The notes under the pieces: model-generated | The model's input: the letters and a program-made list of their open reading frames with translations, nothing else | What the model was told of the DNA's origin: nothing | Databases searched by the model: none | Shown here: piece after piece, positions 16,221-40,968 of the stretch | How positions within the stretch are numbered: the first letter of the stretch is position 1 | Layout: each line of letters begins with the position of its first letter | Program-made: the position numbers and the translations under genes | From: an uncultured Acidobacteriota bacterium | GTDB lineage: Bacteria; Acidobacteriota; Terriglobia; Terriglobales; Acidobacteriaceae | Direction of reading: 5' to 3' | Assembly (NCBI GenBank): GCA_963817835.1 | Contig: CAWFPZ010000019.1 | Location: 37,283-101,282, forward strand | DNA length: 64,000 bases

Positions 16221-16222
16221 TT

Positions 16223-21300: not shown

Positions 21301-21315
21301 CGCAAGATACTTACT

Positions 21316-21359: not shown

Positions 21360-21391
21360 TGATCACTGGTTACAGCATCTGTAGTTCTGCT

Positions 21392-22681: not shown

Positions 22682-22783
22682 CCTGTCACCTCAGCGTCAT
22701 CAACAGCGCGGTTCCCAGAATCAATACGACCACGGGCACCCACAGATGCACGTCGGTCAGGATGCAAACCAACTTCGATCGCT

Positions 22784-23806: not shown

Positions 23807-23851
23807 AATCTCTCCCCAAAATCGGCTTTCAGCTCTCAGCTGTCAGCATGT

Positions 23852-23919
23852 GAAGGGGCACGACTTCAGTCGTGCCGTAATTCTCGCAAAATGAGTGGTG
23901 GGCTTTAGCCCCTGAGGGA
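23852..23919. repeat. GAAGGGGCACGACTTCAGTCGTGCC…GGCTTTAGCCCCTGAGG REP-like element
   Basis: GGCACGACT/AGTCGTGCC stem; related hairpin at 53726-53753. Confidence 0.7.
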
Positions 23920-24001
23920 ACTCAACCAAAGCCGATTAACCCATTTTTTGCACCGTACCCTAATAAACCGTCGCTCCCCGCCGTACGGAAAAAGCTGGAA
24001 G

Positions 24002-24961
24002 CTAGGAGCTGGAAGCCAGCAGCTGTTCCTGCACAAAATTCGCCTCAATCGAACGAATATACTCCCGGTTCCGCGCCGCACTTTCCTTCGGCGTGCCCAT
24101 TCCCGGAAGAATATCCTGCTCCACCAGCACGTATCCCTTGTAGTCGCGGCGTGCGAGCCAGCGTAACAGGGCAGGGAAGTCCACGCATCCTTTGCCCAGT
24201 TCACAGTACACTCCGTGCCGCATGCCCGTGAAGTAGTCCCACTCCTCCTCGCGGCTGCGGCGCGCCACGTTGGGCTCAATATCTTTCAAATGGATGTACC
24301 AGACGCGCTCCTTGAAGCGCTCGAGAGCCGCCACCAGGTCGATGTCCTCGCGGCCGGTTCCGTGAACATAGTGGCCCGCGTCGAACACCAGTCCCAGTCG
24401 CTCCGGATTGGTTCCATCGAGCAGCGTCGCAATCTCGTCCGGCGTCTCCACGTAGCCCGCGCAGTGATGATGAAACACCGTGCGCAGTCCGGTCTCGTCA
24501 AACACCGCGTGCGCAATCCGATCGGCGCCGCCGGCAAAAGTCTTCCACTCGTCCTTGTTCAGTCCTGCGCTCGCGGGCACGCGCCCGGCGAGCTTGGTGC
24601 GTCGCGCATCGGTCCCGTTGTCGTCGGCCAGCACCAGGAACGGCGCCGGCGTCGTGGCCACAGCCGCAATCAGCCGCGCCGTCCTCACAGCCCTTGCCGT
24701 GCCCTCCGCATGCGCCAGCGGATTCTTCAGCTCCACCGGCACAAACGCGCCCAGCATCGCCACGTTGTTCCGCTTCGTCAGTTCCTCGCTCAGCTGCACC
24801 GGGTCGGTGGGCATGTAGCCCCAGTCGCCCAATTCCGTTCCGGTGTAGCCCGTCTCCACCAACTCGTCCAGCATTTGCGTCGACGGAATCGCCTGGCTCT
24901 GGTCCTGGTGCTCCAGCGTGCCCCACGAACAGGGTGCATTGCCAACCAGCAACTCTTTCAT
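24002..24961 (-). CDS. iolE: myo-Inosose-2 dehydratase (IolE/MocC family TIM barrel)
   Basis: GNAPCSWG, GTELG, VFHHHCAGYVET, HLKD, CELGKG and VEQD motifs. Confidence 0.85.
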   Translation of the reverse strand: MKELLVGNAPCSWGTLEHQDQSQAIPSTQMLDELVETGYTGTELGDWGYMPTDPVQLSEELTKRNNVAMLGAFVPVELKNPLAHAEGTARAVRTARLIAAVATTPAPFLVLADDNGTDARRTKLAGRVPASAGLNKDEWKTFAGGADRIAHAVFDETGLRTVFHHHCAGYVETPDEIATLLDGTNPERLGLVFDAGHYVHGTGREDIDLVAALERFKERVWYIHLKDIEPNVARRSREEEWDYFTGMRHGVYCELGKGCVDFPALLRWLARRDYKGYVLVEQDILPGMGTPKESAARNREYIRSIEANFVQEQLLASSS

Positions 24962-25020
24962 ATCGTCTCCTTGCTTCCCGCGGGTTTTCAGTCTCAGTGC
25001 TTTACTTCAACGGTTGACGA

Positions 25021-25034
25021 TTTACACGTGTGCA
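25021..25034. promoter_or_regulatory. LacI-type operator candidate upstream of iolE
   Basis: TTTACACGTGTGCA, 12/14 match to TGCACACGTGTGCA. Confidence 0.6.
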
Positions 25035-25045
25035 TCACAGACTAA

Positions 25046-25080
25046 AAAGCTAGCAGCTAGAAGCTAGCGGCTAGTAGCTG
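25046..25080. repeat. Degenerate heptamer tract (AGCTAGC/AGCTAGA)
   Basis: Next to the iolA stop codon; a similar tract lies at 23993-24023 around the iolE stop. Confidence 0.65.
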
Positions 25081-25084
25081 TCTT

Positions 25085-26551
25085 TCAGAACTTCCGGCTC
25101 CACTCCTTCGGCCACCGTTCCACAACGACCTTGGTTTGCGTAAAGAACTCCACTGCGTGGTGCGCCTGCGCATGCAGATCGCCGAAAAAGCTTTCGCCCC
25201 ACCCGCTGAACGGGAAGGTTGACATCGGCGCGGCCACGCCCACGTTAATGCCCACATTGCCCGCTTGCACCTCGTAGCGGAAGCGCCGTGCATTGGCGCC
25301 GTCGGTGGTGAAGATGCAGGCCATGTTGCCATAGCTGCGTCCATTCACCAGCGCAATCGCCTCTTCAATGGTCTGTGCATGGATCAGGCTCAGCACCGGC
25401 CCAAAGATCTCCGTTCGCGCCGTCTCGGAATCAGGCGGCACATCGTCCAGCACCGTAGGCAGCACGAAATAACCATCCTCGTAGCCGTCCACTTTTTTGC
25501 CGCGCCCATCCACCACCACGCGCGCGCCGGCCTGTTCGCCCTTCGCGATCAGCCCTTCGATCCGCGTCTTGCTCTCGGCGGAAATCACCGGGCCCATCTC
25601 CACATCCGGCAACGCGCCGTAACCCGTCTTGCGGCTCTGGGCCGCCGCCACAATCCGATCCGTGAATGTGCGCGAATCGCCCACGGTAATCGCCACCGAT
25701 GCCGCCAGGCATCGCTGTCCCGCGCAACCAAACGCGGAATCAGCCAGAATCCGCGTCGTCATCTCCATGTCCGCATCCGGCATCACCACCACCGGATTCT
25801 TCGCGCCGCCCTGGCACTGCGCGCGTTTCCCATTCGCAGCTGCCCGGCTGTAAACGTACTTCGCCGTCGGCGTCGATCCCACAAAACTCACTGCCTTGAT
25901 GCCCGGATGATCCAGAATCGCATTCACCGCATCACGTCCGCCGTTCACCAGTTGCATCACGCCCGGCGGGAATCCCGCTGCCTGAATCAGCTCGAACAGT
26001 TTCTGCGACGTGATCGGTACGCGCTCCGACGGCTTCAGCAAAAAGCAGTTGCCCGCCGCTACCGCGTAGGGGAAAAACCAGAACGCGATCATGCCCGGAA
26101 AATTGAACGGCACAATCGCCGCCACCACGCCCAGGGGTTGCCGGATCATGTGCTCGTCGATGCCCCGCGCAATGTCCTCGCAATTCGTGCCCTGCATCAT
26201 GATCGGCATGGCGCACGCCGTTTCCACGTTTTCCACTGCGCGCAGAATCTCCGCGCGGCTCTCCACCAGCGTCTTGCCGCATTCTCTCGTGATAGACAGC
26301 GCGAGTTCTTCGCGATGCTGCTCCAGCAGCGTCTTCAGCCGGAACAGCGGCTGAATCCGGTCCACCACCGGCGTCCGCCGCCACTCGATAAACGCCCGCT
26401 CCGCCGCTTCCACCGCAGCATTCACGTCCGTCGCCGGCGAAAGCGGAACCTCCACCAGCACCTTGGCCGATGCGGGATCGATTACGTTCAGCGCATTCGT
26501 TGCGCTCGAAGCGCGCCATCCTCCATCAACAAAATTCTGCAACCGCTCCAT
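25085..26551 (-). CDS. iolA: CoA-acylating (methyl)malonate-semialdehyde dehydrogenase
   Basis: [35 protein letters not shown] (catalytic Cys), EIFGPV and FSGW; start placed at MERLQNF. Confidence 0.92.
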
Positions 26552-26610
26552 AGAGAACCTCCGTCTCATCGAAACCGAAATGTAGCGCCGGTCTCCAGAC
26601 CGGCTGTCGT

Positions 26611-26648
26611 GGGGTGCCCCGTCCAAGCTTTGCTTGGGCGGGTGTAGC
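26611..26648 (+). repeat. REP-like GGGTGCCCC-hairpin element between iolD and iolA
   Basis: GGGGTGCCCCGTCCAAGC-TTT-GCTTGGGCGGGTG. Confidence 0.7.
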
Positions 26649-26664
26649 TCCCTTGCTCCCTGTA

Positions 26665-28542
26665 TCAAAGATGATGCCGTTCGCGCTTGCGCGCTTCTTC
26701 ATAGCGTGCTCTCGCCTCGCGCACGCTCTCCAGTTCCGAAACTTCCGCTACCGCAACATCCCACCAGGACTCGTATCCCGGCACGCCGGTTGACGTATCC
26801 GTTTCCACTACAATCACCGTGGTGCGGTCCAGCGTCTTCGCTTTCTCGAGGGCTTGCTTCAGTTCATCCAATGTACCAGCAGTCAACGCATATGCGCCCA
26901 GGCTGCGCGCGTTGGCCGCAAAGTCCACCTTCAGCACATCGCCGTCCAGTTGTTTACTCGCTTCGTTGCGTGCGCGATACCGCGTTCCGAACCCGCCCTG
27001 CCCTAATGACCGGCTCAGGCTGCCGATCGAGGCGAACCCGTGATTGTCCACCAGCACGATGATGATCTTGATCCCCTCCTGCACGGACGTCACAATCTCC
27101 GTGGGCATCATCAGATACGTGCCGTCGCCCAGGAACACGTAGACTTCGCGGCTGGGATCGGCCAGCTTCGCGCCCATGGCGCCCGGAATCTCGTACCCCA
27201 TGCACGAGTAGCCGTATTCCATGTGATAGCCGTTGGGTGTGCGCGTGCGCCACAGCTTGTGCAGATCGCCGGGATGGCTGCCCGCGGCCGACAGCAATAC
27301 GTCACGCTCGCCCGCAGCCGCCCATAGCGCGCCAATCACTTCGCTCTGCGCGGGTTTGCCCCCGCCGTTCGAATTTTGACTGTTCAGATGAAAGAGCCGC
27401 TCGACCTCCGCGTCCCACTCGACGCGCAACCCCGCAATCTCCGCAGCATACTTCGCGCCCACCGTGTGTCCGGCGAGCGCCGCGCCCAGTTCCTCCAGCG
27501 CCACGCGAGCGTCGGCAACCACGGGAATCGCGCCCACCTTGTACGCGTCAAACTCCGCGGTGTTGATATTCACAAACTTCACTGCCGGATTCTGAAACGC
27601 CGTCATCGAGGCCGAAGTGAAATCGGAGTAGCGCGTCCCGATGCCGATCACGAGATCGGCGGAGTTCGCCAAGCGGTTCGCAGCCAGCGTGCCCGTGGCT
27701 CCGATGGCGCCCACCTCCTGCGCATGATCCCACGCAAGCGACCCCTTGCCTGCCTGTGTCTCTGCCACAGGGATTCCGGTCTTGGTTGCGAATTCACTCA
27801 GCGCCTGCGACGCCTCGCTCATCAGCACGCCGCCGCCGGCCACAATCAGCGGCCGTTCCGCGCCGCGGATGGCAGCAATGGCACGCTCCAACGAAACGCG
27901 ATCCGGTTGTCCGCGCCGGATCAGCCACACGCGTTTTTCAAAAAGCTCTTCGGGATAGTCGTAAGCTTCGGTCTGCACATCCTGCGGCAGCGCCAGCGTC
28001 ACCGCGCCGCAATCCGATGGCGAGGTCAGCACGCGCATCGCCTCAGGCAGCGCCGTAATCAGTTGTTCCGGTCTGTAAATGCGGTCCCAGTAGCGCGACA
28101 CCGGCTTGAAGCAGTCGTTCACGCCCGTGTCTTGCGTGGTCGGCGACTCAATCTGTTGCAGTACCGGCGCCACGTTGCGCCGCGCAAAAATGTCTCCGGG
28201 CAACAGCAGCACCGGCAGCCGATTGATGGTGGCCAGCGCCGCGCCCGTAATCATGTTCGTCGCGCCCGGCCCGATCGAAGAGGTGCAGGCAAAGGTTCGC
28301 AGCCGGTTGCTCGCCTTGGCAAATCCCGCGGCCATGTGCACGCCCGCCTGCTCGTTGCGCACAAGAATGTACGGGAAATCGGGATTCTGCTGCAACGCCT
28401 GCCCGATCCCTGCCACGTTGCCGTGCCCAAAAATCCCCAGCATGCCCGCGAAGAATGCATGCTCGCGCCCATCCCGCTCCACATATTGCTGCTTCAGGAA
28501 CTGGATGAGCGCCTGGGCCATCGTGATGCGCCGCGTCTTCAT
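26665..28542 (-). CDS. iolD: 3D-(3,5/4)-trihydroxycyclohexane-1,2-dione acylhydrolase
   Basis: [41 protein letters not shown] and GDGTYLM (ThDP motif). Confidence 0.96.
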
Positions 28543-28611
28543 ACGTACTCCCCCGACCCCCGCGACTACATTTTCACTTTTTTTACTTTTTCGCTCTCTT
28601 CACTTCTTCAC

Positions 28612-28708
28612 GGTTCCTTGGTCCCTAGTCCCTAGTCCCTAGTCCCTACGTCCCTAGTCCCTACGTCCCTAGTCCCTACGTCCCTAGTCCCTACGTCCCT
28701 GGTCCCTA
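28612..28708. repeat. Heptamer tract (GTCCCTA)n with a 15-bp higher-order period
   Basis: About 12 GTCCCTA units; after the first four they occur as C+(GTCCCTA)2; runs into the iolB stop codon. Confidence 0.9.
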
Positions 28709-29527
28709 TCTCTTAACCATCGGCAACCGCGGATCCTTTTCCTTCCAGCCGCCGCGCACCCATGCGTAGTTGGGATCGTCTGAAGCCGCCAGCGACCGCG
28801 CCGATCCCGCAAGCGCGTTCAAATAGTAGACGTTGTATCCGTGCGCGGCCACCACCGGATGATAACCCTCCGGCACCAGCACCAGTTCGCCGTCGCGCAC
28901 CGTCATGGTTTCGTCGATGCGCCCGTCCGCCGTGTACACCTTCTGCACCGCATATCCCTCCGGCCGCTGAATCCGGTAATAGTAAATCTCTTCCAGATCC
29001 ACTTCTCCCGGCGGGTTATGCACGTCGTGCTTGTGCGGCGGAAAGCTCGACCAATTGCCCGCTGGCGTAAACACCTCCACCACCATCAGCCGGTGCGCCA
29101 GAAACTCCGGCGGCAACATGGAATTGATTTGCCGCGTCGCATTTCCGCCCCCGCGAATCTCGATGCCCACGTGCGCCGGCGTTACCAGCCGCGCCGGGTA
29201 CTCGTCCTCGGCCTTTGCGTAGCAAAACGCCAGGTCGCAGGCCGCATCGGCGCTCACAGTGAAACGAGTGCGGACAGGCAGGTAAAGCGTATAAGGCAGC
29301 CCGTCAAAAACCGTTGCGCGCTGCCCAAACCTATGCCACTCGCCCCGCGAGCTCGTTACCGAGCAAACGCCGCCCAACACCACAATGGCCAGTTCGCGGT
29401 TGGCTGTTTCGCCGCTGTACTTCTGGCCGGCTTCCATCTTCCGAGTCTCAAACGATAAAAATTCGTATCCGAAACTATCAATCCGGTCGCGGAACGTCTC
29501 GGGCCGGACAAGCAGGTCACTCATCAT
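28706..29527 (-). CDS. iolB: 5-deoxy-glucuronate isomerase
   Basis: EVFTPAGNWSSFPPHKHD, LEEIYYYR and GYHP motifs of the KduI/IolB family. Confidence 0.95.
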   Translation of the reverse strand: MMSDLLVRPETFRDRIDSFGYEFLSFETRKMEAGQKYSGETANRELAIVVLGGVCSVTSSRGEWHRFGQRATVFDGLPYTLYLPVRTRFTVSADAACDLAFCYAKAEDEYPARLVTPAHVGIEIRGGGNATRQINSMLPPEFLAHRLMVVEVFTPAGNWSSFPPHKHDVHNPPGEVDLEEIYYYRIQRPEGYAVQKVYTADGRIDETMTVRDGELVLVPEGYHPVVAAHGYNVYYLNALAGSARSLAASDDPNYAWVRGGWKEKDPRLPMVKR

Positions 29528-29602
29528 CTCTCCAGGGGGAGCTTACGCAAAACGCCGGCAAATGGAACACGGGCCCATGCCGAACGAAAAGACAAGCAAA
29601 GT

Positions 29603-29652
29603 TGCACACGTGTGCACCTTTCCATCATCCTATGCCTCCGACCGCCTGTCAA
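29603..29652 (-). promoter_or_regulatory. iol operon promoter (TTGACA-17-GATGAT) with a perfect operator TGCACACGTGTGCA at about +1 to +14
   Basis: -35 box at 29647-29652, -10 box at 29624-29629, palindrome at 29603-29616. Confidence 0.7.
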
Positions 29653-29880
29653 CAGAAATACCGGTCTCTTCGGTAACCGGTTTCTTGCCCGTATCTTGTG
29701 GAGACAAAGGTCGCATTGCCACAACAACTTACCCACCCGGCCCAGCACTTATTTCTGCCGCGAAAGCAGATTCGAAATCATAGCATCCCCATCGCCCACC
29801 CAGTCGCGATGCTCCCTATCCGATCTGTCATCTTGACCGAAGTCGAAAGACCTGCGGCCGTTTTGCCAACTCAACCCAGC

Positions 29881-30320
29881 ACGAAAAGGGGTGCCCCACA
29901 TCTCGCTTCTGAGATGTGGCAAACCACGAACCCAGGCAGCCCCATTCAACCCCGCACGAAAAGGGGTGCCCCATATCTCGCTTCTGAGATGTGGGAAACC
30001 ACGAACCCAGGCAGCCCCATTCAACCCCGCACGAAAAGGGGTGCCCCATATCTCGCTTCTGAGATGTGGGAAACCACGAACCCAGGCAGCCCCATTCAAC
30101 CCCGCACGAAAAGGGGTGCCCCAGATCTCGCTTCTGAGATGTGGGAAACCACGAACCCAGGCAGCCCCATTCAACCCCGCACGAAAAGGGGTGCCCCACA
30201 TCTCGCTTCTGAGATGTGGGAAACCACGAACCCAGGCAGCCCCATTCAACCCCGCACGAAAAGGGGTGCCCCACATCTCGCTTCTGAGATGTGGGAAACC
30301 ACGGACCTCAACTCCCCCGC
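29881..30320 (+). repeat. Tandem array of a 75-bp unit carrying the GGGTGCCCC hairpin (5 full units and 1 partial)
   Basis: Units start at 29881, 29956, 30031, 30106, 30181 and 30256; linkers are identical; SNPs occur only in the stem. Confidence 0.95.
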
Positions 30321-30356
30321 TCCCTAGCTCCCTCGTTCCCTCGCTCCCTGTACTTC

Positions 30357-30405
30357 TTGACCCCCGCCAATTCCCGGTGCTACGGTTTGTATGCACACGT
30401 TTGCA
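30357..30405 (+). promoter_or_regulatory. Transaldolase promoter (TTGACC-18-TACGGT) with operator TGCACACGTTTGCA
   Basis: -35 box at 30357, -10 box at 30381, and a 13/14 operator match at 30392-30405 just before the GGAGG RBS. Confidence 0.65.
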
Positions 30406-30420
30406 CCCGCCGGAGGAATC

Positions 30421-31523
30421 ATGGCTCCCGTTACCCCCTCGCTCCAATTCAAAAGCCCGCTCCACAAAATGACGCAGACCACCCCCACCTACCTCTGGAA
30501 CGACTCGGCCTCCGTTGAAGAGCTCACCTACTCCATCGCGCACGGCGCAGTCGGCGCCACCTGCAACCCGTCCATCGCCGTCAGCGTCCTCAAGCACGAG
30601 CTCCCCGCCTGGAAGCCGCGCATCCTCGAGCTCGCCGCCGCTGAGCCCGAACTCACTGAGGACGGTCTCGCCTGGCGCATCGTCGAAGAGATCTCGGCCA
30701 ACGCCGCGCGCCTGCTCCTGCCCATCTTCGAGCGCGAAAAAGGCCGCAACGGCCGCCTCTCCATCCAAACCGACCCGCGCAACTATCGCAACACCGCCGC
30801 CATGCTCGAGCAGGCCATCCATTTCAGCCAGCTCGCGCCCAACATGATCGTCAAAATCGCCGCCACGCACGCCGGCCTCGCCGCCATGGAAGAGGCCACG
30901 TACCGCGGCATCAGCATCAACGCGACTGTCAGCTTCACCCTGCCGCAGGCCATCGCCGTAGCCGAAGCCGTCGAGCGCGGCCTCAACCGCCGCGAAGCCG
31001 AGGGCCTCGACATTTCGACGATGGGCCCGGTCTGCACCATCATGGTCGGCCGCCTCGACGACTGGCTCAAAGTCCTCCACGACAAGCACAATCTCTCCGT
31101 CGATCCCGGCTACCTCGAGTGGGCCGGCGTCGCCGTCTTCAAGAAGGCCTATCAGATTTATCAAGCCCGCGGCTATCGTCTGCGCCTGCTCTCCGCGGCC
31201 TTTCGCAATCACATGCACTGGAGCGAATTCATCGGCGGCGACGTCGTCATCTCGCCGCCCTGCGTCTGGCAAAAGCGCTACAACGCCAGCGACATCGAAG
31301 TCATCGACCGCATCTCCACGCCCGTCGACCCGCTCATCGTCTCCACGCTCCTCGACAAGTTCCCCGACTTCGCCCGCGCCTGGAACGAGAACGGCCTGAC
31401 CCCCGCCGAGTTCGACACCTTCGGCAGCACGCGCCGCACCCTCCGCGAGGATTCATCGCCGCCGTAGCCGAGATGAACGCCATCGTCCGCGACGTGATCC
31501 TGCCGAACCCGGATACGGAATAG
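30421..31523 (+). CDS. Transaldolase-family protein (non-canonical), with an apparent frameshift near 31447 in the last ~25 codons
   Basis: LWND, TCNPS, VKIAAT (Schiff-base Lys), SINATVSF and MVGRLDDWL; the annotated frame stops at 31467 and the shifted frame continues …FIAAVAEMNAIVRDVILPNPDTE*. Confidence 0.8.
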
Positions 31524-31686
31524 CAGGGAACAAGGGACCAAGGGAGCAAGAAGGCAGGGATCAGGGAACAGAAAGCGCGGCGCTCGCAAAAAGCCGCGCT
31601 TCATTTTTTCGCCCCTTCGCTCCCTTCACTTCTTCACTTTTTTCACTCGGACCGCGATGTTTCGTTAAGCCCAGCAGAATCAATCT

Positions 31687-31763
31687 AAATGTCCGTTTTT
31701 GAGGGGCCGAAAAGGGGCCAAATGTTCGCTCAAGTGGTGCCATTTGCCCCCGAAATGTTCGCT
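31687..31763. repeat. Three 11-bp direct repeats AAATGTYCGYT at an exact 33-bp period
   Basis: Copies at 31687, 31720 and 31753. Confidence 0.6.
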
Positions 31764-32100
31764 TAGAGTTTCGCGATTTTTTGAGACATCTTGCTGAGAA
31801 TTACCCGTTTTCAGGGTGAGTGTGACCATAGAATTTCCCGAATAAACGCAAAGGGTTGCAGAGAACTTCCCATAAACGCGTCTAAACGGGCTTCGGTGCA
31901 CGTTTTTGCGCGTGTTTTCGCGCGTTTTTGGCCCGTTTTGCGCGCGAATTTTGGGGTGGTGAGTGCGAGTGTGAGTGCGGGCTGCGGCCCCGGCCGGCTG
32001 ATCTCTGGTTCCTGATCTCTGAACCTTGGTTTCGGTATGCGCCGGGAGGGGAAGATTATATGCGGAGCGGCGGGGAAAACTTATTGCTCTTTTTTATACG

Positions 32101-32130
32101 CTTGACAGATGGTCAAGGGCTGAGTACACT
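32101..32130 (+). promoter_or_regulatory. Sigma70-type promoter TTGACA-17-TACACT with a palindrome CTTGAC-N5-GTCAAG over the -35 box
   Basis: Near-consensus hexamers at 32102 and 32125. Confidence 0.7.
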
Positions 32131-32282
32131 CTTCCGTTCTGTCGCCCAATCTGATTTGCCGTTCCTAATCTTGGGAATGAGATGTCGTATCGCGTGCCTT
32201 CTCTGGAGGCTGTTGCCCAGAGACGTGTTCGACATCTCCAGCTGCGAAACACAATTACGGACATCTTAAAAGGAGACTGTTC

Positions 32283-32921
32283 ATGAACTGTTCCGCTTGT
32301 GGAAAAGCGAATGTCGATGGCGTCTTGTTCTGCGAGTACTGCGGAGCCAGCATGCGCGCTCAATCAGCAGCAGTACCGGGCGCATTCGCGCCCGCCACGG
32401 TTCCTGCATCGCCCGCTCCTCCCACGGCCGCTCAAGTCGCGCAGATGGGCAAGTCGATAATCGGCGCGATGACTCTCGGCGAAAAGTTCGCGGTCGCGGG
32501 CGTTGCTGCAGCAGTGTTGGGTTTCTTTTTGCCGTTTGCAACTACGCCCGATCTGGGGGAACTTTCCGGGCTCCTCTCAAGCCTCGGTTCCGGCGGAGGA
32601 GAGGGTGGTCACCTCAGTTTGTCTCTGTTCGGCGCGACCAAATTTCTCGGCGCCATCTACATATTATTGCTCGCGGCGGTCGCTGCCGGGGTGCTGGCCT
32701 ACCTTATGCGGAAGGCGCCCAACGCAAAGAAAATGCTGATGAGCGGCTTCCTGGTGATGATCGGCTCACTTTTCGGTCCGGGCTGCGTTGCCGCTCTCCT
32801 TTTTGTTCCCATGATTCAATCCGTGGCGGGAGCCGGCTACTACCTGTTCGGACTGGGGTATTGTGCCATCGCAGCCGGAGGTTTGATCATCATCGGCACT
32901 TTGAGCAAAGCCGTCCGCTGA
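32283..32921 (+). CDS. Zinc-ribbon domain membrane protein
   Basis: AAGGAG RBS; CSAC…FCEYCG ribbon, Pro/Ala linker and about 4 TM helices. Confidence 0.8.
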   Translation: MNCSACGKANVDGVLFCEYCGASMRAQSAAVPGAFAPATVPASPAPPTAAQVAQMGKSIIGAMTLGEKFAVAGVAAAVLGFFLPFATTPDLGELSGLLSSLGSGGGEGGHLSLSLFGATKFLGAIYILLLAAVAAGVLAYLMRKAPNAKKMLMSGFLVMIGSLFGPGCVAALLFVPMIQSVAGAGYYLFGLGYCAIAAGGLIIIGTLSKAVR

Positions 32922-32946
32922 GCCGGAAGGGAAAGCGAGGACTTCC

Positions 32947-34569
32947 ATGTTTTGTCCAGATTGTGGTTCTACGGTAGCGGAAGGCCGAGTGTTTTGCGGA
33001 AAATGTGGTGGACGTATTCATGCTGCTGCCGCATCCGCAGCGCCGCAAGCCGCTCCCGTCCAACTTGCTCCCGTCGTTCCTCCGCAACCGGCGCGGCCCC
33101 CTTCGCCGTATCGCTGGGTCGTTTACGCCGCTGTTCTCCTGCTCGCCGCTCTCGGCGGTGTCGCATGGTGGTGGTTCCATCGACCCCCGCCGCCCTATCA
33201 AGTGCAGGACCCCGGGATTTACCCCTTCCAGGGCCTTACCGCTGACGGAAAAGCCATGAAATGGGGCTTCATCGACGCGGATGGGAAAGTCTTGATCCAA
33301 CCGGCATGGGACGGCGTCGACCTCAGCGATCTCATTCTTGGCCGTTCCGCCGCGTGCAACGAGGGACTATGCGCGGTCCTTAAGGACGGAAAATGGGGCT
33401 ACGTCGATTCCAGCGGTAACTTGGTAATTTCCAACCAGTTTGACTCGGTCGCTCCGTTCGTCGAGGGCATGGCGCGCGTTCATTTTGGAAATCAGGTTGG
33501 CTACATCGACAAAGCCGGCCACCTCGCCATTAACCCGCAATTCTATGATGCCGGAGATTTCTATGGCGACCTGGCAGCCGTCCGCACCGACGATGGCTGG
33601 GGCTTCATCAATAAGACCGGAACGTTTGTCATCAAGCCACGCTTCCAGGCGGCGGACACCAACGGTTTCTCAAGTGGGCTCGCCGGCGTTTGCACCGGCG
33701 GCAAATGCGGCTTCATCGATCACACGGGCCAATTCGTGATTCGTCCGCAATTCGGCAACCTTGGAACCTTTTCCGAAGGTCTAGCCGAGGTCGGGATCAA
33801 CGGCAAGCTCGGCTATATCAATACCTCCGGCACAGTCGTCATCAACCCTCAGTTCGATCAGTCAACCATGTTTTCCGACGGCCTTGCTGCCGTCTCCGTC
33901 TCCGGGCGTCAAGGAACGATTAACAAACAAGGCAAGTATCTTCTCAATCCTGGGCAATACAACTTCGGCATAAAGGAAGGAGACGTGCTTGTCGCGACAA
34001 CGAATCAGGGAATGGGCTTGATGACCAGGGGGGGCCAATGGCTGATTCAACCGTCAGCCTCGCTCACGGGTGTAGGCCCCATCTTCGGAAAAGTGTTTCT
34101 TGGAACGCTGGGCGGCCAGCAGGGTCAGGTTCCCATCTCCATTTCCGGCAAAGTGCTTGCCGGTCCCTACAAGGGCTCGATGATTGCATCACTTGCTCAA
34201 GACATCCAGGACGAAACCAGCGCCATCCAGTCCATGCACGCTCTAACCGCCGCTGAAACCGCCTACTCGGGCACCTACCCTTCCGGCTTCACTGATTCGC
34301 TCGAAAAGCTCGGCCCGGCCACGGGTACGCCCGATCAAAACCACGCCGGGCTCATTGACGCAACCCTCGCCACCGGAACCAAGGATGGCTATCAGTTCGT
34401 CATCACTATTCCTGCTGGAACCTCGACCGGTGGAAGCAACTTCAATTACTTTCTCGTCGGCAAGCCCGCATCCGGCCACGCCGGTCGCACGTTCTGCGCC
34501 GACTCCTCGGGGACTGTGCGTTACGCAGAACAAGGCCAGGATTGTACGACCTCATCGCCAGTTCTGTGA
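32947..34569 (+). CDS. Zinc-ribbon + TM + WG (KWG) repeat protein with a C-terminal pilin-head-like domain
   Basis: CPDC…FCGKCG ribbon, a TM helix, about 8 xGF/YIdxxGxxvIxP repeats, then DETSAIQSMHALTAAETAY…GYQF…RTFCADSSG…CTTSSP. Confidence 0.8.
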   Translation: MFCPDCGSTVAEGRVFCGKCGGRIHAAAASAAPQAAPVQLAPVVPPQPARPPSPYRWVVYAAVLLLAALGGVAWWWFHRPPPPYQVQDPGIYPFQGLTADGKAMKWGFIDADGKVLIQPAWDGVDLSDLILGRSAACNEGLCAVLKDGKWGYVDSSGNLVISNQFDSVAPFVEGMARVHFGNQVGYIDKAGHLAINPQFYDAGDFYGDLAAVRTDDGWGFINKTGTFVIKPRFQAADTNGFSSGLAGVCTGGKCGFIDHTGQFVIRPQFGNLGTFSEGLAEVGINGKLGYINTSGTVVINPQFDQSTMFSDGLAAVSVSGRQGTINKQGKYLLNPGQYNFGIKEGDVLVATTNQGMGLMTRGGQWLIQPSASLTGVGPIFGKVFLGTLGGQQGQVPISISGKVLAGPYKGSMIASLAQDIQDETSAIQSMHALTAAETAYSGTYPSGFTDSLEKLGPATGTPDQNHAGLIDATLATGTKDGYQFVITIPAGTSTGGSNFNYFLVGKPASGHAGRTFCADSSGTVRYAEQGQDCTTSSPVL

Positions 34570-34674
34570 GAACCGGATCCCTGCCTTGGGCGGGGATTCA
34601 CCTTTTTTGATCCGTTTTGCCCCTGCGCGTCGAGCGCATCGCCCGGTAGAGTTCGACCTTTCGGAGACTGTCTC

Positions 34675-35841
34675 ATGCAAATCAGGCTTTCGTTCCCAAC
34701 CCGTCGTCAGTCACGTTCTCTGAGTGTTCTTCTACTCCTCGCTTTCTACGCGCTCATCCTCTCCCCTTCCGCCACACTAAGCCAGCAGCCCGCCGTGCAA
34801 AAGTTTACCCTCGACCAGATCGAGGGGCTCATCGTGCACAACGTGCCAGACGCCACTTTGAGCAACCAGATTCGCCTCCATGGCCTTGCCTTCGCCCCAA
34901 GCCCAGCTATTCTCGACGAACTCAGCGCCAAGGGCGCTGGCCCTTTGACGCTGGCCGCAATCCAGGCGTTCGTCTCCAAGGCGCCGCAAGCCCAGCCCGG
35001 AGCGCCGGCAAAGCAGCCGGGAGGGCAGGGTCAAGGCGGAGGTAATCAGTCCCTTGTGCAGGCACAGCAACTCGCCTGGAAGGCGCAACCTGCGAATGGG
35101 CAAATCGAGATAACGCAGGCGGAGTGGCGGAACGGCGCGAGCGTGACCATCCAGTCGGCGACGCTGGAGTGCATTCAGTATGGCGCCAACAACCAGTCTC
35201 TTTCGCAGTTGACCACCACGCTCAACGGGCCGGTGCAGCCAGGGCAGACCGTCAACATCCAGCCATTCACTTTGGGAACCGAGGCACAGGGCGTGGCCAA
35301 CATGAAATGCGGCATTGTGGGGGTCGCGCCGCAAGCCCAGCCCGTCGCGACTCAACCCACCGACAGCGAACCGACGCTGGCGGCGACCATGCAATTCATC
35401 CAGGACAAATTGAATGAGCGGGGCGCCTTGAAGTTTGCAGTGCATACGCATGACAATGCCGATGGAAAGGACTCCACGGATCAGTACATCAACGAGACCA
35501 GCAACTTGATCGTCGATCCTACCTCATGCAACATTAGCTATCACCGGACACACAAGAAGAACGGGGCAGTGGAGGCAGACGCCGACGTATCCTTCAGCCT
35601 TCACAATGTGCAAGATGTGGTAGTCACGACTGCCGAGCAGAGTTGGAAGCTCTCCTATAGCTCGGCAGGACACCCGACTTGGGATGCGAAGATCGATCCA
35701 CCCATGTTTCAGGTCGTAGTGCGAAAAGCAGGAAACCAGGGAAATGGGTTTTACTTTACCGATGAGGAAATGGCCAACCGCGTAGCCAAGGCCTTGCGCC
35801 ATGCGGTCGAGCTATGCGGCGGCAATAGGGAGCCGTTTTAG
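34675..35841 (+). CDS. Secreted modular hypothetical protein
   Basis: Signal peptide, N-terminal helical domain, Gln/Pro linkers, a central Ig/FxLYD-like domain with a Cys pair, and a C-terminal domain. Confidence 0.65.
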   Translation: MQIRLSFPTRRQSRSLSVLLLLAFYALILSPSATLSQQPAVQKFTLDQIEGLIVHNVPDATLSNQIRLHGLAFAPSPAILDELSAKGAGPLTLAAIQAFVSKAPQAQPGAPAKQPGGQGQGGGNQSLVQAQQLAWKAQPANGQIEITQAEWRNGASVTIQSATLECIQYGANNQSLSQLTTTLNGPVQPGQTVNIQPFTLGTEAQGVANMKCGIVGVAPQAQPVATQPTDSEPTLAATMQFIQDKLNERGALKFAVHTHDNADGKDSTDQYINETSNLIVDPTSCNISYHRTHKKNGAVEADADVSFSLHNVQDVVVTTAEQSWKLSYSSAGHPTWDAKIDPPMFQVVVRKAGNQGNGFYFTDEEMANRVAKALRHAVELCGGNREPF

Positions 35842-36115
35842 AGAATTCGGTTGCTTATTCACCAACTGTTCAATTTGGCTTGGCGTCAGCTTGGGGAGGG
35901 CCGGTTGCTGGCCGATCGCATTCTGAGACCCAAGCACAGCAGCAAAGGCCAGAAGCACCAATACGCGCAGAGCCTACGAGTTCCGAACGGGAGATGATGA
36001 TTCATGAAAGTTGAGCAGTGAATAGTGGGACATGATACCTATTCCCCGCATAGCACCATTTTCCGTATAAGGGCGGTGGCCCGGCCCTCGAATTTGAATC
36101 TTGCGATTCAACGCC

Positions 36116-36418
36116 TCAGCTTGCCAGCGCCTCCACCACTGCCTCCGGATGCCGGGCAATCACCGTGAGATAAGCTCGCGCTGCGCGATCGGGACGCCGC
36201 CGCCCTTGCTCCCAATCCTGCAAGGCGCGCGGGTCGAGGGCGAAGCGGCGCGCAAACTCCGCGCGGCTGAGGCCGGTGGCTGCCCGCACCGCACGCACAT
36301 CCACTTCAAGAGGGAGCGGGAACTGGTGAACGGCGGCGGGCTCGGCCTCGCCCTTGGCGATGGCGGCCGCCTCGCCCATGGCCGCGACAAGTTCGTCTGC
36401 AACATTCTTCCGCTTCAT
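36116..36418 (-). CDS. XRE/HigA-like helix-turn-helix protein (antitoxin type), no toxin partner
   Basis: VRAVRAATGLSRAEFARRFALDPRALQDWEQGRRRPDRAARAYL. Confidence 0.85.
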   Translation of the reverse strand: MKRKNVADELVAAMGEAAAIAKGEAEPAAVHQFPLPLEVDVRAVRAATGLSRAEFARRFALDPRALQDWEQGRRRPDRAARAYLTVIARHPEAVVEALAS

Positions 36419-36436
36419 GGTTTGATCCTAATCGCA

Positions 36437-36465
36437 ACTATGCGGCATTGCCGCACAACCGTCAA
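36437..36465 (-). promoter_or_regulatory. Promoter TTGACG-17-CATAGT with operator palindrome TGCGGCA-N-TGCCGCA
   Basis: Perfect 7-1-7 inverted repeat at 36441-36455 between the -35 and -10 boxes of the HTH gene. Confidence 0.65.
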
Positions 36466-36887
36466 GCCCTCGCGCAGTCGGCCTCGCCCCAGAAATTTCT
36501 TCCGCCGTTTTGCAGATAATTTCCCCCTCCCGGCGCACAATCGTTCTATGAGCTGCCCCGAAAGGCAAAGCAATTCGCCCACGCCCTCCGCTTTTCTACT
36601 CCCTGTTAGCTGTTTACTACTTCCTAACTCCCCCTCCCCTCCCCCCGGGTCGGGCGCCCACGCACCACGGCCCACGGTTCACGAGCAACGCCGCAGAGCC
36701 ACAGCTCTCTGACCACGGATCACTGACCACTGGCGGCCACGCCGCAAAATCGAGTTGTGAAACTGTGAAGCTCGGAACTAGCTCCGAATCAACCACTTAC
36801 AGAACAAATCCGCGCAGCCTCACAGTCTGCGTGTTTCTGTGATCCTGTGGAGCGCGATCACTTCGGTTTTTGGGGCAGAGGTTTTGC

Positions 36888-36948
36888 CACGAACCACGAA
36901 CCACGAATCACGAACCACGAACCACGAATCACGAATCACGAACCACGA
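36888..36948. repeat. Heptamer tract (CACGAAC/CACGAAT)n
   Basis: About 8-9 units. Confidence 0.85.
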
Positions 36949-37150
36949 TTCATGATCCACGGGCCTCCGCCACCTAAGTCGTTAGCGATGACGACTTTCC
37001 GGAAGCCTCTCTTTTAGAATCAAGAAGATACGGAGAGCCCACCCCGTAAACCATTTTCTGTGAGGACTTTAGGAAAAAGGGGGGAGGGGGTAAGGCGGGG
37101 CTACTGAAAGGGAAACCCCCGCCGCAGCCGGTCCTTCAGACACCGGCACT

Positions 37151-37174
37151 CTGACCACTGACCACTGACCACTG
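37151..37174. repeat. Heptamer tract (CTGACCA)n
   Basis: About 3.5 units. Confidence 0.75.
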
Positions 37175-37554
37175 GTTCTTGGCTACTGGCTACCGGATTC
37201 ACGGCCGGGCCACACTCGCACTCACACTCACACTCGCAATTCGGCTGTGCAACTGTACCGCCCTATCTAACCAGCGATGTTTCAACGGTTTGCAGCCAGA
37301 CAGCTGACCTCGTTACAGCCACTGTACAACTGTACAGCGGCACCCAACGAGCACATAAATAAGGGTTTATCATCAGATCGAAAAACGCGGTAAATTCGCT
37401 GTAAGACTGTGACGCTGTACCGGGAACGCCGCAATCGAGCGCGGCCGCGCCGCGCACTTTGCATGTCCAAACTGAGCGAGTTGGGTTCGGCCCGACTGAA
37501 GTCATGCCCTTGTTACAAAGCGGATTTATGAAACACGCAAGAGTTCAAGTTTTT

Positions 37555-37620
37555 CTGATCCCTGATCCCTGATCCCTGACCACTGACCACTGACCACTGA
37601 CCACTGACAACTGACCACTG
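37555..37620. repeat. Heptamer tract (CTGATCC)3(CTGACCA)n
   Basis: About 9 units, ending 2 nt from the glpP stop codon. Confidence 0.85.
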
Positions 37621-37622
37621 TT

Positions 37623-38228
37623 CTACTTGATCCACATCTCCGGATGGCTGGTGGACACGGCGCTCAGTCCCTGTTCGAGCAGCGCTTCCACTTCCTTCAT
37701 ATTGGAGATCAGCCCGCCGCCAACGACCGGCAGATCGGGATTGATGGCGCGCACTCGGTCCAGCATCTTGGGCGCGACCAGCGCGGGCAGAATCTCCAGC
37801 GCATGCACCGGCGTATTGCGCAGCTGATTCGAGATGGTATCCATGGCGCCGCTATCGAGCAGAAAGGTGCGCTGGATGCCGTAGAGCCCGATGGCCAGCG
37901 CGTGGCGCAGCGGGTCGAGGTGCGTGGAGATGATGCCGCCCGCGCCCACGCGCTTGAGGTAATTGACCGCGTACTTGTCGCGCGAGAAGCCGTTGAGCAG
38001 ATCGAGATTGACGATCGCCACCTTGCCCGCGGCGGTGATCTTCTGGATCATCGGCTCGATGGTATCCGGATCGCCGGTGAGCAGATAAATCAGCCGGCTG
38101 CGCGACGCGATGGCAAGCTCCACAAGATCCGGCTTGCGAATGGCGGGGAGAATCGGCGTCTCCGCGCAGAACACGCGCAGCGGAGTCAGCGGCGGCGGCG
38201 TTCCGTTTCTTACAACGGCGTCAGACAT
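37623..38228 (-). CDS. Glycerol-3-phosphate-responsive antiterminator, GlpP/YgcP family
   Basis: IVNLDLLNG, GIISTH, IQRTFLLDS, EILP, GGGLI and AVSTSHPEMW; its start overlaps the lacI stop (ATGTCTGA). Confidence 0.85.
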   Translation of the reverse strand: MSDAVVRNGTPPPLTPLRVFCAETPILPAIRKPDLVELAIASRSRLIYLLTGDPDTIEPMIQKITAAGKVAIVNLDLLNGFSRDKYAVNYLKRVGAGGIISTHLDPLRHALAIGLYGIQRTFLLDSGAMDTISNQLRNTPVHALEILPALVAPKMLDRVRAINPDLPVVGGGLISNMKEVEALLEQGLSAVSTSHPEMWIK

Positions 38229-39339
38229 GCGTCCCTCCGAGTGGGGCATGATGTCCGTCCCGCTTCTGCGCTTTTCCTGTCGATCCTCTTACCATCAATT
38301 CCGCCTCCACTTTCACCTGCACCACCGACTCCTGGCCCGACATCAGCTTGAACAAATTCTCCATCGCCAACTGTCCCATGCGCCGCATGGGCTGCCGCAC
38401 CGTGGTCAGAGTGGGCGTGAGATACGCGGCAAAAAACAAATCGTCGAATCCCGTCACTGAAACATCCTCAGGCACCTTGAGCCCGCGCGCGCGGATCGCC
38501 CGCATCGCGCCCAGCGCCGTCATGTCGTTGTAGCAGACGATCGCGGTCGGCGGATGCTTCAACTGCAGCAGCGCATCCGTCGCCTTGCCCGCCGCTTCCG
38601 GCCGGCTGTCGCCCTCGACTGCCAGCTCCGGCGCAAAGCCGATCCCCGCTTTCGTCAGTGCCTCTTTGTATCCCGCGAGCCGCTCCGCATCGGATTGGTA
38701 TCCGCCGCGATCGCCGAGATACGCAATTCGCCGATGTCCCAACTCGATCAGGTGCTCCGTTGCCGCGCGCGTTCCTTCCTGGTTCGCGATCATGACCGAG
38801 TGCACAAACTCGCCGGAAGCCTGGTCGTTCACCAGCACGATGGGAACCTGCAGCTCCTTGAGCAGCGGCATATACAACGCGCCCACGCGCGACGACGTGA
38901 CAACGATTCCATCCACGCGCCGCTCGGCAAACTCCTGCACCACTTTGCGCTCGCGCTCCGGATCGGCGTGCGAGTTGGCCAGGAACACCGCATAGTTGTG
39001 ATCGTTGGCAATCTCCTCAATGCCGCAAGCCACTTCGCTGGCAAACGGATCGTCGACCGTAGTCACCACGAGGCCGATGGTTCGCGTCCGTCGCGTCACC
39101 AGGCCGCGCGCAACCGCGCTGGCGCGGTATCCCGCGTCTTCGGCGATCTTGCGGATCTTGGCCGCAGTTGCCGCATTCACCAGGGGACTGTTCTGCAGGG
39201 CGCGCGAAACCGTAGGGTGCGAAACCCTCGCCAGCCGCGCAATGTCCTTGATGGAAGGCTGCCGCGAAGGTTGCCGTGGCACGCGCTTCATGCCCGCATG
39301 CGGAACTCCTGCCGACTTGCCTCCGTCCTTCTCCACCAT
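38221..39339 (-). CDS. LacI family transcriptional regulator (candidate IolR)
   Basis: SIKDIARLARVSHPTVSRAL HTH, ARGL hinge, YNDMTALG, SVTGFDD and LTTVRQP; AGGAG RBS before the ATG at 39339. Confidence 0.95.
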   Translation of the reverse strand: MVEKDGGKSAGVPHAGMKRVPRQPSRQPSIKDIARLARVSHPTVSRALQNSPLVNAATAAKIRKIAEDAGYRASAVARGLVTRRTRTIGLVVTTVDDPFASEVACGIEEIANDHNYAVFLANSHADPERERKVVQEFAERRVDGIVVTSSRVGALYMPLLKELQVPIVLVNDQASGEFVHSVMIANQEGTRAATEHLIELGHRRIAYLGDRGGYQSDAERLAGYKEALTKAGIGFAPELAVEGDSRPEAAGKATDALLQLKHPPTAIVCYNDMTALGAMRAIRARGLKVPEDVSVTGFDDLFFAAYLTPTLTTVRQPMRRMGQLAMENLFKLMSGQESVVQVKVEAELMVRGSTGKAQKRDGHHAPLGGTHV

Positions 39340-39355
39340 GGCCAGAAACTCCTAA

Positions 39356-39369
39356 TGCACACGTGTACG
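39356..39369. promoter_or_regulatory. LacI-type operator candidate upstream of lacI-glpP
   Basis: TGCACACGTGTACG, 12/14 match to the palindrome. Confidence 0.6.
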
Positions 39370-39462: not shown

Positions 39463-40968
39463 ATGCTCCCATCCACCTCAACTTCCGCCGACCACCCCAT
39501 CGGGCAAGCGCCGAACTCCGGCGATTCCGACGTGGGCGATTCTGGCGGGTTGCAGCGCCGCATCGGTCTCCGCTCCGCTGTGCTGTTCAACATGCTGGAG
39601 ATGATCGGCGTCGGTCCCTTCATCACGCTGCCTCTGGTCATCGCCGCTGCGGGATTCCGAATGTCGGTTTGGGCGTGGCTGCTCGGCGCTGCCATCGCTG
39701 TCGCCGACGGCCTGGTCTGGGCCGAACTCGGCGCAGCCTTCCCGCGTGCCGGCGGTTCGTACGCCTTTCTCCGGGAAATCTACGGCCCCGGGAGCGCGGG
39801 CAACTGGCTGAGCTTTCTCTATGTCTGGCAGGTCGGATTCACTGCGCCGCTGTCGATTGCTTCGGGGTGCATCGGCCTCTCCGGGTTTCTCGCGGTCTTC
39901 TGGCCCGGCCTCGACTCGGCGCCCATCGCTGCGCTGCCCACACTCCACTACGCGAACTTTGCCGGCGCCGCCGCGTGCCTTCTCGTCACCGTGCTCCTCT
40001 ATCGCAATATCAGCTCCGTCGCGCGCATGGCATGGGTGCTTTTTGCCGGCGTCATGGCTGCGCTCACCGGCGTCATCGTCTCCGGATTCGCTCACGCCGC
40101 GGCCACCGGCGGCTGGCATATACCTACTGCGCCGGCGCTCTCCACTGCGCTCGGGTCGATTGGAACAGCGAGTGGAACTCTCGGCGGTCTCGCCCAGGCC
40201 ACGCTCCTTGCCACGTACTGTTACTGGGGCTATTACAACATCTGCTTTCTCGCTGGCGAAGTCCGCCGACCCGAGCGCACGATTCCTCGCGCCATCCTGC
40301 TCTCGGTCGTCTTCGTTTCCGCGTTGTATGTTTTGATGAACCTGGCCGTGTTGCCATCGCTCGGCGGCGCCGCATCGCATGCTGGCGGGTCCGCCGTGCT
40401 GCGTTTCCAACTTGCCGCCGACATCGCGCGCTCGGCTTTCGGACCCTGGGCCGGCTACACCATCGCCGCGCTTATCGTGTGGACCGCTTTCGCCAGCATC
40501 TTCTCACTGCAACTCGGCTACTCGCGCGTGCCCTACGCCGCCGCTCGCGACGGCAACTACTTCCGCTTTCTCGGTGCGCTGCATCCAAAGCACGGCATCC
40601 CCCACCGATCGCTTGTGGCACTGGGCATCGTGGGAGCCTTCTTCTGCTTCTTCTCGCTCACGCAGGTCATCACTCTGCTCGTCATTACGCGCATTCTGCT
40701 GCAATTCTTCCTGCAGCAATTCGGCGTGATCTATCTGCGCGTGCGCAAGCCCGATCTCCCGCGGCCTTTCCGCATGCCGATCTATCCACTGCCGCCGCTC
40801 TTCGCCATGGCCGGCTTCGGATTTCTCCTCGTCTATCGCGTCCACGCAGTGAAAGAGCTCGCCGTCGCTGCTGCAATCGCCGTCTCCGGGAGCCTTCTCT
40901 ATCTGCTGCGCGCGCATCGTCTGCGGCAATGGCCATTCGCAGACGTGTCCCAACCTCAAAGCCAATAG
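39463..40968 (+). CDS. APC family amino acid/polyamine permease
   Basis: MIGVGPF, WAELGAAFPRAGGSYAFL, GEVRRPERTIP, SRVPYAAARDG and RPFRMP; about 12 TM. Confidence 0.9.
   Translation: MLPSTSTSADHPIGQAPNSGDSDVGDSGGLQRRIGLRSAVLFNMLEMIGVGPFITLPLVIAAAGFRMSVWAWLLGAAIAVADGLVWAELGAAFPRAGGSYAFLREIYGPGSAGNWLSFLYVWQVGFTAPLSIASGCIGLSGFLAVFWPGLDSAPIAALPTLHYANFAGAAACLLVTVLLYRNISSVARMAWVLFAGVMAALTGVIVSGFAHAAATGGWHIPTAPALSTALGSIGTASGTLGGLAQATLLATYCYWGYYNICFLAGEVRRPERTIPRAILLSVVFVSALYVLMNLAVLPSLGGAASHAGGSAVLRFQLAADIARSAFGPWAGYTIAALIVWTAFASIFSLQLGYSRVPYAAARDGNYFRFLGALHPKHGIPHRSLVALGIVGAFFCFFSLTQVITLLVITRILLQFFLQQFGVIYLRVRKPDLPRPFRMPIYPLPPLFAMAGFGFLLVYRVHAVKELAVAAAIAVSGSLLYLLRAHRLRQWPFADVSQPQSQ

Follow-up and report, generated by a model that had tools for sequence, protein, structure and literature searches.

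A LacI-family regulator and a conserved palindromic operator predicted to form an inositol regulon in an uncultured Terracidiphilus

Which regulator controls the inositol-catabolic (iol) genes of an uncultured member of the Acidobacteriota, and which other genes fall under its control? The question arises from a 64-kb stretch of DNA (the window; C19:37283-101282 of a 5.32-Mb assembly, G000, with 60% G+C) in which iolB lies about 9 kb from a gene encoding a LacI-family transcription factor (38221–39339, minus strand). Related records place the organism in Terracidiphilus (Acidobacteriaceae), as an uncultured member found in peat or soil, and the metagenome-assembled genome (MAG) is 99.4% complete with 4.7% contamination. 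An initial annotation had proposed that four copies of a 14-bp palindrome define an inositol regulon governed by this LacI, and had counted a transaldolase gene and glpP among its members. We scanned for matches to the palindrome TGCACACGTGTGCA with up to two mismatches, compared orthologous loci, and assigned gene identities from Pfam and NCBIfam profiles, setting bit scores against family cut-offs. Compared genomes carry G-codes and loci L-codes; genus-wide presence counts cover 37 Terracidiphilus genomes, and exact-match counts across genomes used TGCANACGTNTGCA. In silico analysis established that the sites exist, how rare they are, where they lie and how far they are conserved, as well as the co-occurrence and synteny of LacI and the identities of the genes. 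Together these results suggest that the LacI at 38221–39339 very probably binds the operators and governs the iol genes.

Exactly four matches to the palindrome occur in the window, against 0.36 expected, and none of 100 shuffles gave four. Each was recovered where the initial annotation had placed it and with the same number of mismatches. All four are intergenic and lie in promoter regions, and all carry a central ACGT. O-iolB (29603–29616) is the perfect palindrome TGCACACGTGTGCA and spans approximately +2 to +15 of the iolB promoter. O-tal (30392–30405; TGCACACGTTTGCA, one mismatch) is located between the −10 box and the ribosome-binding site of a transaldolase-like gene. O-iolE (25021–25034; TTTACACGTGTGCA, two mismatches, reading TGCACACGTGTAAA on the minus strand) precedes the iolE-like, iolG and transporter genes, and O-lacI (39356–39369; TGCACACGTGTACG, two mismatches) lies in the divergent region between lacI and an APC-family permease gene, 17 nt upstream of the lacI start codon.

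Across the whole assembly we found 12 sites with up to two mismatches. Two of these are on contigs C31 (14.7 kb) and C33 (24 kb), which match window positions 12869–27327 and 36439–60458, respectively. C31 is 93–99% identical to its counterpart, a portion of the iol cluster, and C33 is 99.7% identical to the lacI-glpP-permease region, operators included in both cases. Because of this near-identity their sites are not independent, and the second copies probably reflect uncollapsed strain variation in the MAG and not real duplication. The motif is rare, with ten non-redundant sites remaining in the 5.3-Mb genome, and four of them fall inside a single 14.3-kb span (P ~2e-5). In the position weight matrix scan of G000 that the initial annotation had called for, the top seven hits were the regulon sites and their duplicates, after which the score falls. 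Five extra candidates (C17:179106, C22:1012, C7:444976, C17:510943 and C23:167681, the last in uxaC) were not included in the regulon because of their lower scores, the lack of an inositol context or their coding location.

Three of the promoters into which these operators are set have conserved elements of their own. The iolB promoter (29624–29652, minus strand) reads TTGACA-17-GATGAT, its −35 TTGACA is kept in G011, G017, G026 and G029, and O-iolB begins 7 nt past the −10 box. The transaldolase-like gene has a TTGACC-N18-TACGGT promoter followed, after 5 nt, by O-tal and then by GGAGGA and ATG, an arrangement conserved across relatives as TTGACC-N18-TAnnGT plus GGAGGA-ATG. Its start is most likely the ATG at 30421, behind the ribosome-binding site, and not the ATG at 30391, which overlaps the operator. 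Both operators thus stand just downstream of −10 boxes, as had been claimed. Upstream of lacI the conserved order is TTGACG, GAGACT, O-lacI, AGGAG and ATG; the N-terminal peptide MxxKDGG is kept in relatives, indicating that the lacI start at 39339 is genuine. The same operator lies ~70 bp upstream of the putative −10 box of the APC-family permease gene. O-iolE is at or beside a −35 region, just past a terminator-like hairpin (25068–25049) that closes the iolB-iolD-iolA operon. The positions of all four operators are typical of repression.

The candidate regulator has the full architecture of its family, as judged from Pfam matches to the helix-turn-helix and to Peripla_BP_1, Peripla_BP_3 and Peripla_BP_4. 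The helix-turn-helix (PF00356, residues 29–72) scores 45.9 bits against a cut-off of 27, and the effector domain scores 152 bits with PF13377 and 122 bits with PF00532. The hinge ...YRASAVARGL... contains the AVARGL segment, and the link between the hinge leucine and operators with a central CG follows from established structural knowledge of PurR and LacI. The PurR box has a CAAACGTTTG-type core, whose central CG is contacted by hinge leucines; O-tal carries the comparable ACGTTTGCA. CcpA and PurR are the best solved relatives, aligning over the full length at ~35% identity, and they share the fold of the Terracidiphilus LacI but have different effectors and regulons. The protein reached no NCBIfam equivalog cut-off (227 bits against 436–501).

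Synteny explains the separation between lacI and the cluster. In G011 the order is iolG-E-A-D-B, then the divergent transaldolase-like gene, then glpP-lacI and the divergent permease gene, without a gap, and the distance between lacI and iolB is 2–6 kb in G011, G026, G031 and G017, with 3–6 kb in the last three. The window has an insert of ~6 kb (31.5–37.6 kb) between the transaldolase-like gene and glpP, which is absent from G011 and from the close relatives L099 and L100; it holds zinc-ribbon and WG-repeat membrane-protein genes together with open reading frames without a Pfam match. The 9-kb separation therefore stems from a recent, lineage-specific insertion. The initial annotation was right that lacI is distant in the window, but in compact relatives the lacI-glpP pair adjoins the transaldolase-like gene.

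The phyletic pattern points the same way. LacI orthologues (71–88% identity) are present in 9 of the 37 genomes, eight of which also have iolB, and iolB is found in none of the 28 genomes that lack this LacI (Fisher p = 2e-7). Exact matches to TGCANACGTNTGCA number one to four per LacI-positive genome (mean 2.8), all at iolB, the transaldolase-like gene or ino1, compared with four single matches among the 28 LacI-negative congeners (mean 0.14; Mann-Whitney p = 1e-7). With LacI accompanying iolB in 8/8 genomes, the G011 gene order and the conserved footprints described below, the proposal that it is the IolR of this cluster is well supported.

Footprinting in orthologous loci, which the initial annotation had suggested, revealed conservation at three of the four operators and, for O-iolE, in the closest relatives only. 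In every orthologous spacer between iolB and the transaldolase-like gene that we examined (~20 species), O-iolB is unchanged and O-tal is the same 13/14 variant; the surrounding spacer DNA has diverged, promoter boxes excepted. O-tal and the divergent position of the transaldolase-like gene are kept in all species examined, which supports the assignment of this gene to the regulon. O-lacI is conserved in G017, G026, G031 and G011, and its half-site ACACGTGTGCA occupies the same place in ~30 Terracidiphilus loci. O-iolE is retained in five species, including G017, L099, L100 and L070. Beyond the phylum, exact TGCANACGTNTGCA occurs less than 120 bp upstream of LacI orthologues of 40–44% identity in Chloroflexota and Saccharibacteria MAGs. 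In the window, the spacer between O-iolB and O-tal also holds a 75-bp tandem array of 5.8 copies with 98% matches (29871–30307), each unit with a hairpin-like core; both flanking operators are intact. The spacing of the two operators is mostly 110–340 bp in relatives and 450–940 bp in the closest ones, which shows the array to be recent and variable.

Outside the window, a fifth site (TGCAGACGTGTGCA; C6:153425-153438) lies between a HemQ-like (chlorite-dismutase-family) gene and dedA-ino1. The regulon was described as four-site, which holds for the window, but with this site it probably comprises at least five overall. The dedA gene encodes a DedA/VTT-domain protein, and the gene after it is ino1, for myo-inositol-1-phosphate synthase (PF07994 and PF01658). 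The site is present in 12/12 LacI-positive Terracidiphilus genomes examined, being exact in 11 (doubled in two of them) and carrying two mismatches in G021. It was found in 0/6 LacI-negative genomes examined, even though the flanking TAGGAT and TATATACT boxes align. G014 has LacI and the ino1 site without an iol cluster, and G077, in which lacI is possibly broken, keeps the site, also without an iol cluster. A TATACT box ends 10 nt before the dedA ATG and is invariant in the 15/15 genomes aligned (C6:153440-153512; L133:3440-3515); combined with the absence of a Shine-Dalgarno sequence, this suggests a near-leaderless dedA-ino1 transcript. The operator centre lies 51, 53, 63–65, 83, 85 or 109 bp upstream of the TATACT box, with all distances but 109 in helical phase. 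Relative to the likely transcription start, the centre is ~63–97 bp upstream, with the exception of G016 (~−121). This distance is an activator-type geometry. On this comparative evidence, direct control of dedA-ino1 by LacI appears fairly probable; that the control takes the form of activation is a more tentative proposal, drawn from the geometry.

Several observations weigh against a single LacI acting at all of these sites. The motif is not over-represented genome-wide: 300 scrambled palindromes of the same composition gave a median of 13 sites. The signal therefore resides in clustering, placement and conservation and not in over-representation. G011 lacks O-iolE, as do most congeners that are more distantly related, and the region upstream of lacI has no operator in G021 and G014, which indicates that autoregulation is not universal. 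The LacI-positive genomes probably form one subclade, and their Ino1 proteins are slightly more identical to that of G000, so that the phyletic p-values overstate the number of independent events; the cross-phylum association between operator and orthologue is free of this weakness. The operator upstream of dedA-ino1 also overlaps the −35 position belonging to the conserved TAGGAT box of the divergent HemQ-like gene, which leaves the regulated gene there ambiguous, and no ino1 site was found in the more distant LacI-orthologue genomes (55–66% identity).

These last points are the starting point for an alternative in which LacI is a pure catabolic repressor, the C6 site serves the HemQ-like gene or is weak or non-functional, and ino1 stands outside the regulon. 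The operator centre is ~31 bp upstream of the HemQ-like start predicted from the TAGGAT box, a repressor-type position, and its distance to the dedA −10-like box varies between 51 and 109 bp. Set against this, the site tracks LacI perfectly, is kept in G014, where LacI occurs without iol genes, and shows helically phased spacings with one exception; a haem-biosynthesis-type gene has no obvious connection with inositol, and IpsA offers a precedent for ino1 control. We regard this alternative as doubtful. It is far less probable that some other factor recognises the palindromes, or that they work as hairpins at the RNA or DNA level, with LacI a mere neighbour that has a different operator. A terminator scan does mark the perfect palindrome as a 5-bp stem, but the motif has the canonical LacI-family architecture of a 14-bp palindrome with a central CG, matching a protein with AVARGL. 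It accompanies the LacI orthologue in three phyla, in each case a short way upstream of it, and is essentially missing from the 28 congeners without LacI; no other regulator gene is conserved at the locus, and no Rfam family matches the region.

If LacI acts at these sites, which ligand would release it? A LacI orthologue of 55–60% identity adjoins a myo-inositol oxygenase (MIOX) gene in six Terriglobia/Bryobacteraceae MAGs (L091, L093, L095, L097, L098 and L103), with the exact operator TGCANACGTNTGCA at the MIOX promoter. Neighbouring genes in L091 encode a PIG-L-family deacetylase as well as a TonB-type outer-membrane protein, and after a further 6 kb there is a second operator. One Anaerolineaceae orthologue heads an operon with two operators that encodes an inositol-dehydrogenase-type protein (GFO/IDH/MocA), a PfkB kinase and sugar-acid enzymes. 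Since the IolG and MIOX routes share only myo-inositol, this compound is the most economical candidate, and the gene contexts suggest that it is most likely the effector. A downstream intermediate or another cyclitol (scyllo-inositol, chiro-inositol or an inosamine) could be sensed in its place, which we consider rather unlikely. Pathway intermediates are the effectors of many catabolic repressors, the iolE-like gene falls below its equivalog cut-off, and the conserved partner of lacI is an APC "amino-acid" permease and not a known inositol carrier. Against these points, the orthologues would govern two entry routes that are non-homologous, IolG-type and MIOX, and myo-inositol is the only metabolite common to both. 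The effector of Bacillus subtilis IolR is 2-deoxy-5-keto-gluconate-6-phosphate (DKGP), and this compound may not be made in a genome without canonical IolC. The effector of IpsA is myo-inositol.

In the mechanism that we favour, a LacI dimer would bind the four window promoters via TGCAnACGTnTGCA. At iolB-iolD-iolA, the TAL/FSA-like gene and lacI-glpP, the operator between the −10 box and the ribosome-binding site would block transcription, and at the fourth target, the iolE-like, iolG and transporter genes, the same outcome would follow from an operator at or beside the −35 region. An inositol-derived ligand, most likely myo-inositol, would release the protein, giving classical negative control with autoregulation. 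LacI would very probably also bind the dedA-ino1 site, activating when inositol is absent, and a single sensor would thereby switch the cell between inositol synthesis and degradation. Three parts of this mechanism are our inference: physical binding by LacI, the direction of control at the individual promoters, and the identity of the ligand.

The regulated genes themselves are mostly well assigned. iolB (5-deoxy-glucuronate isomerase; 28706–29527, minus strand) reaches 327 bits with TIGR04378 against a cut-off of 205 and heads an operon with iolD (THcHDO acylhydrolase; 26665–28542, minus strand; TIGR04377, 940 against 715 bits) and iolA/mmsA (CoA-acylating methylmalonate/malonate-semialdehyde dehydrogenase; 25085–26668, minus strand). 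The latter scores 545 bits with TIGR01722 against a subfamily cut-off of 448, and its true start may lie further in. The next unit on the minus strand begins with an iolE-like gene (24002–24961) for a TIM-barrel sugar-phosphate isomerase/epimerase (Pfam AP_endonuc_2), which at 171 bits remains below the TIGR04379 cut-off of 290. It continues with iolG (inositol 2-dehydrogenase; 22784–23806; TIGR04380, 458 against 355 bits) and ends with a GRP/TMEM144-type sugar transporter (21392–22681; Pfam Sugar_transport and TMEM144), a candidate inositol importer whose position is kept in G011 and G031. The iolB gene is split in G017 (L029, C11:571742-572387) and iolD in G031 (L028) by frameshifts or stops, with the operators intact; these may be decaying clusters or MAG assembly errors.

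The lower part of the pathway appears to be unusual. No canonical IolC was found in the genome (the best score was 105 bits, with the cut-off at 300), and the cluster has no iolJ-type aldolase; a TAL/FSA-family gene (30421–31467, plus strand; Pfam TAL_FSA, 133 bits), divergent from iolB, stands in its place. This transaldolase-like protein bears only a weak resemblance to true transaldolases, reaching 110 bits with the best NCBIfam model where the cut-off is 367, keeps the Schiff-base lysine motif IVKIAAT, and has Gln at the position of TalB Glu96 and Met at that of Phe178. Fructose-6-phosphate aldolase also has Gln at the Glu96 position. The lack of iolC and iolJ, together with a co-regulated TAL/FSA aldolase, may signify a variant lower inositol pathway, and non-phosphorylative cleavage of 2-deoxy-5-keto-gluconate by the transaldolase-like protein is an attractive possibility. 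The aldolase would split the unphosphorylated compound into dihydroxyacetone and malonic semialdehyde, replacing IolC and IolJ.

The GlpP-like protein (37623–38249, minus strand) matches the G3P_antiterm profile PF04309 over its full length (1–173/173) with 159 bits, and its start overlaps the lacI stop, indicating co-transcription of the pair. A single copy occurs in each of the eight iolB-positive genomes of the 37 and in none of the others, and the gene is absent from the distant LacI-orthologue genomes examined, a distribution by which glpP tracks the IolB-type pathway rather than LacI. It forms an operon with lacI in nearly all species and stands alone in G021, where no operator was found upstream of it. 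No glp genes were found at the locus in any species examined, so the usual association of GlpP with glp genes was not encountered. The inclusion of glpP in the regulon, as originally proposed, holds through its membership of the autoregulated lacI operon and its 8/8 agreement with iolB. On the other side of lacI, the APC-family permease gene (39463–40968, plus strand; Pfam AA_permease_2, NCBIfam subfamily matches only) keeps its adjacency to lacI in G011, G017, G026 and G077.

A possible RNA-level role for the GlpP-like protein led us to consider candidate targets. The iolB 5′ leader (29528–29602, minus strand) contains the inverted repeat CCGGCA...TGCCGG with a T-rich stretch behind it, and this element recurs at an equivalent position in ~12/14 orthologous leaders. 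The repeat, CCGG(C/T)(A/G)...CCGG, shows some compensatory changes in the pairs flanking its invariant CCGG core. Single-sequence fold z-scores for the leader were not significant, one species excepted, RNAalifold returned no consensus structure for it, and no known RNA families (Rfam) were found in the window between 20 and 42 kb. The repeat may form a hairpin or attenuator in the leader that the GlpP-like protein might target, but with these fold results we did not adopt a GlpP-dependent attenuator. Heptamer repeats, (CTAGCNN)n and (TAGGGAC)n, occur at 25043–25075 and 28621–28708; they are TAG-rich, keep a 7-nt register, are partly palindromic (GCTAGC), and lie directly after stop codons and in the iolB-iolD, iolA-iolE and dedA-ino1 gaps, one of them being terminator-like. 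We rejected the idea that such (UAGNNNN)n repeats, at 25050–25074 and 28621–28708, are HutP-like or GlpP RNA targets, because the pattern has 170 hits genome-wide on both strands, typically right after genes, and is not regulon-specific; the repeats are a genome-wide family.

The fullest version of the mechanism joins these elements into a two-way inositol homeostat. Without inositol, LacI would repress iolB-iolD-iolA, the iolE-iolG-transporter unit and the transaldolase-like gene and activate the near-leaderless dedA-ino1 operon from its helically phased upstream site, and inositol would reverse both effects; the TAL/FSA aldolase would carry the lower pathway, and the GlpP-like protein would supply a second layer, RNA-level or metabolite-sensing. 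Taken as one joint reading, with all three parts holding at once, this is doubtful in our estimation.

Comparison with known systems separates what is familiar from what is new. The regulatory principle, a LacI repressor with palindromic operators and autoregulation, is already well known. B. subtilis IolR, which controls iolABCDEFGHIJ, shares its logic as an inositol-catabolism repressor with a divergent regulator unit and inositol induction, but belongs to the DeoR family and differs in operator type and effector. Comparative genomics over seven phyla, Acidobacteriota not included, has described seven non-orthologous LacI groups for inositol utilisation (Ravcheev et al. 2014, PMC4052901). 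Like the Terracidiphilus LacI, the RegPrecise LacI-type "IolR" regulators are encoded beside or in iol clusters, act through palindromic, CG-centred iol operators and are usually autoregulated (PMC4052901); the Terracidiphilus regulon differs in adding a TAL/FSA-like aldolase, a GlpP-like protein and probably ino1. A close functional parallel at ino1 is IpsA (Cg2910 of Corynebacterium glutamicum, Rv3575c of M. tuberculosis), a LacI-type dimer that recognises a palindromic motif with a central CG, activates ino1 through sites located upstream of −35, acts as a repressor at promoters that its sites overlap, and is released from DNA by myo-inositol (PMC3899939). The geometry in Terracidiphilus is IpsA-like, with the operator upstream at dedA-ino1 and overlapping or past the −10 box at the iol genes, the sign at ino1 being read from geometry only. 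Corynebacterium has a separate GntR-type IolR for the iol genes, and the main service of IpsA there is to mycothiol and the inositol lipids of the cell envelope, whereas one Terracidiphilus regulator appears to cover both synthesis and catabolism.

What is new is a LacI-type inositol regulator in a phylum outside earlier coverage, in which IolR-like and IpsA-like roles are probably joined in one protein; these joined roles, the unusual gene set and an operator conserved over three phyla could give it added interest. Acidobacteriota are abundant in soil and peat, and to our knowledge almost nothing is known of their transcription regulation. The present locus offers a predicted regulator-operator-regulon pairing of high confidence for this phylum, with promoter elements (−35 TTGACA/TTGACC; −10 GAnnAT/TAnnGT) conserved over many uncultured species, and its parts could be used to build a genetic switch that responds to inositol and to inform annotation. 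Three under-annotated genes, encoding the TAL/FSA-like aldolase, the GlpP-like protein and the APC-family permease, are flagged as likely inositol-pathway components. For the organism itself, the proposed regulon would tie the catabolism of plant- or microbe-derived inositol to the cell's own inositol synthesis via one sensor.

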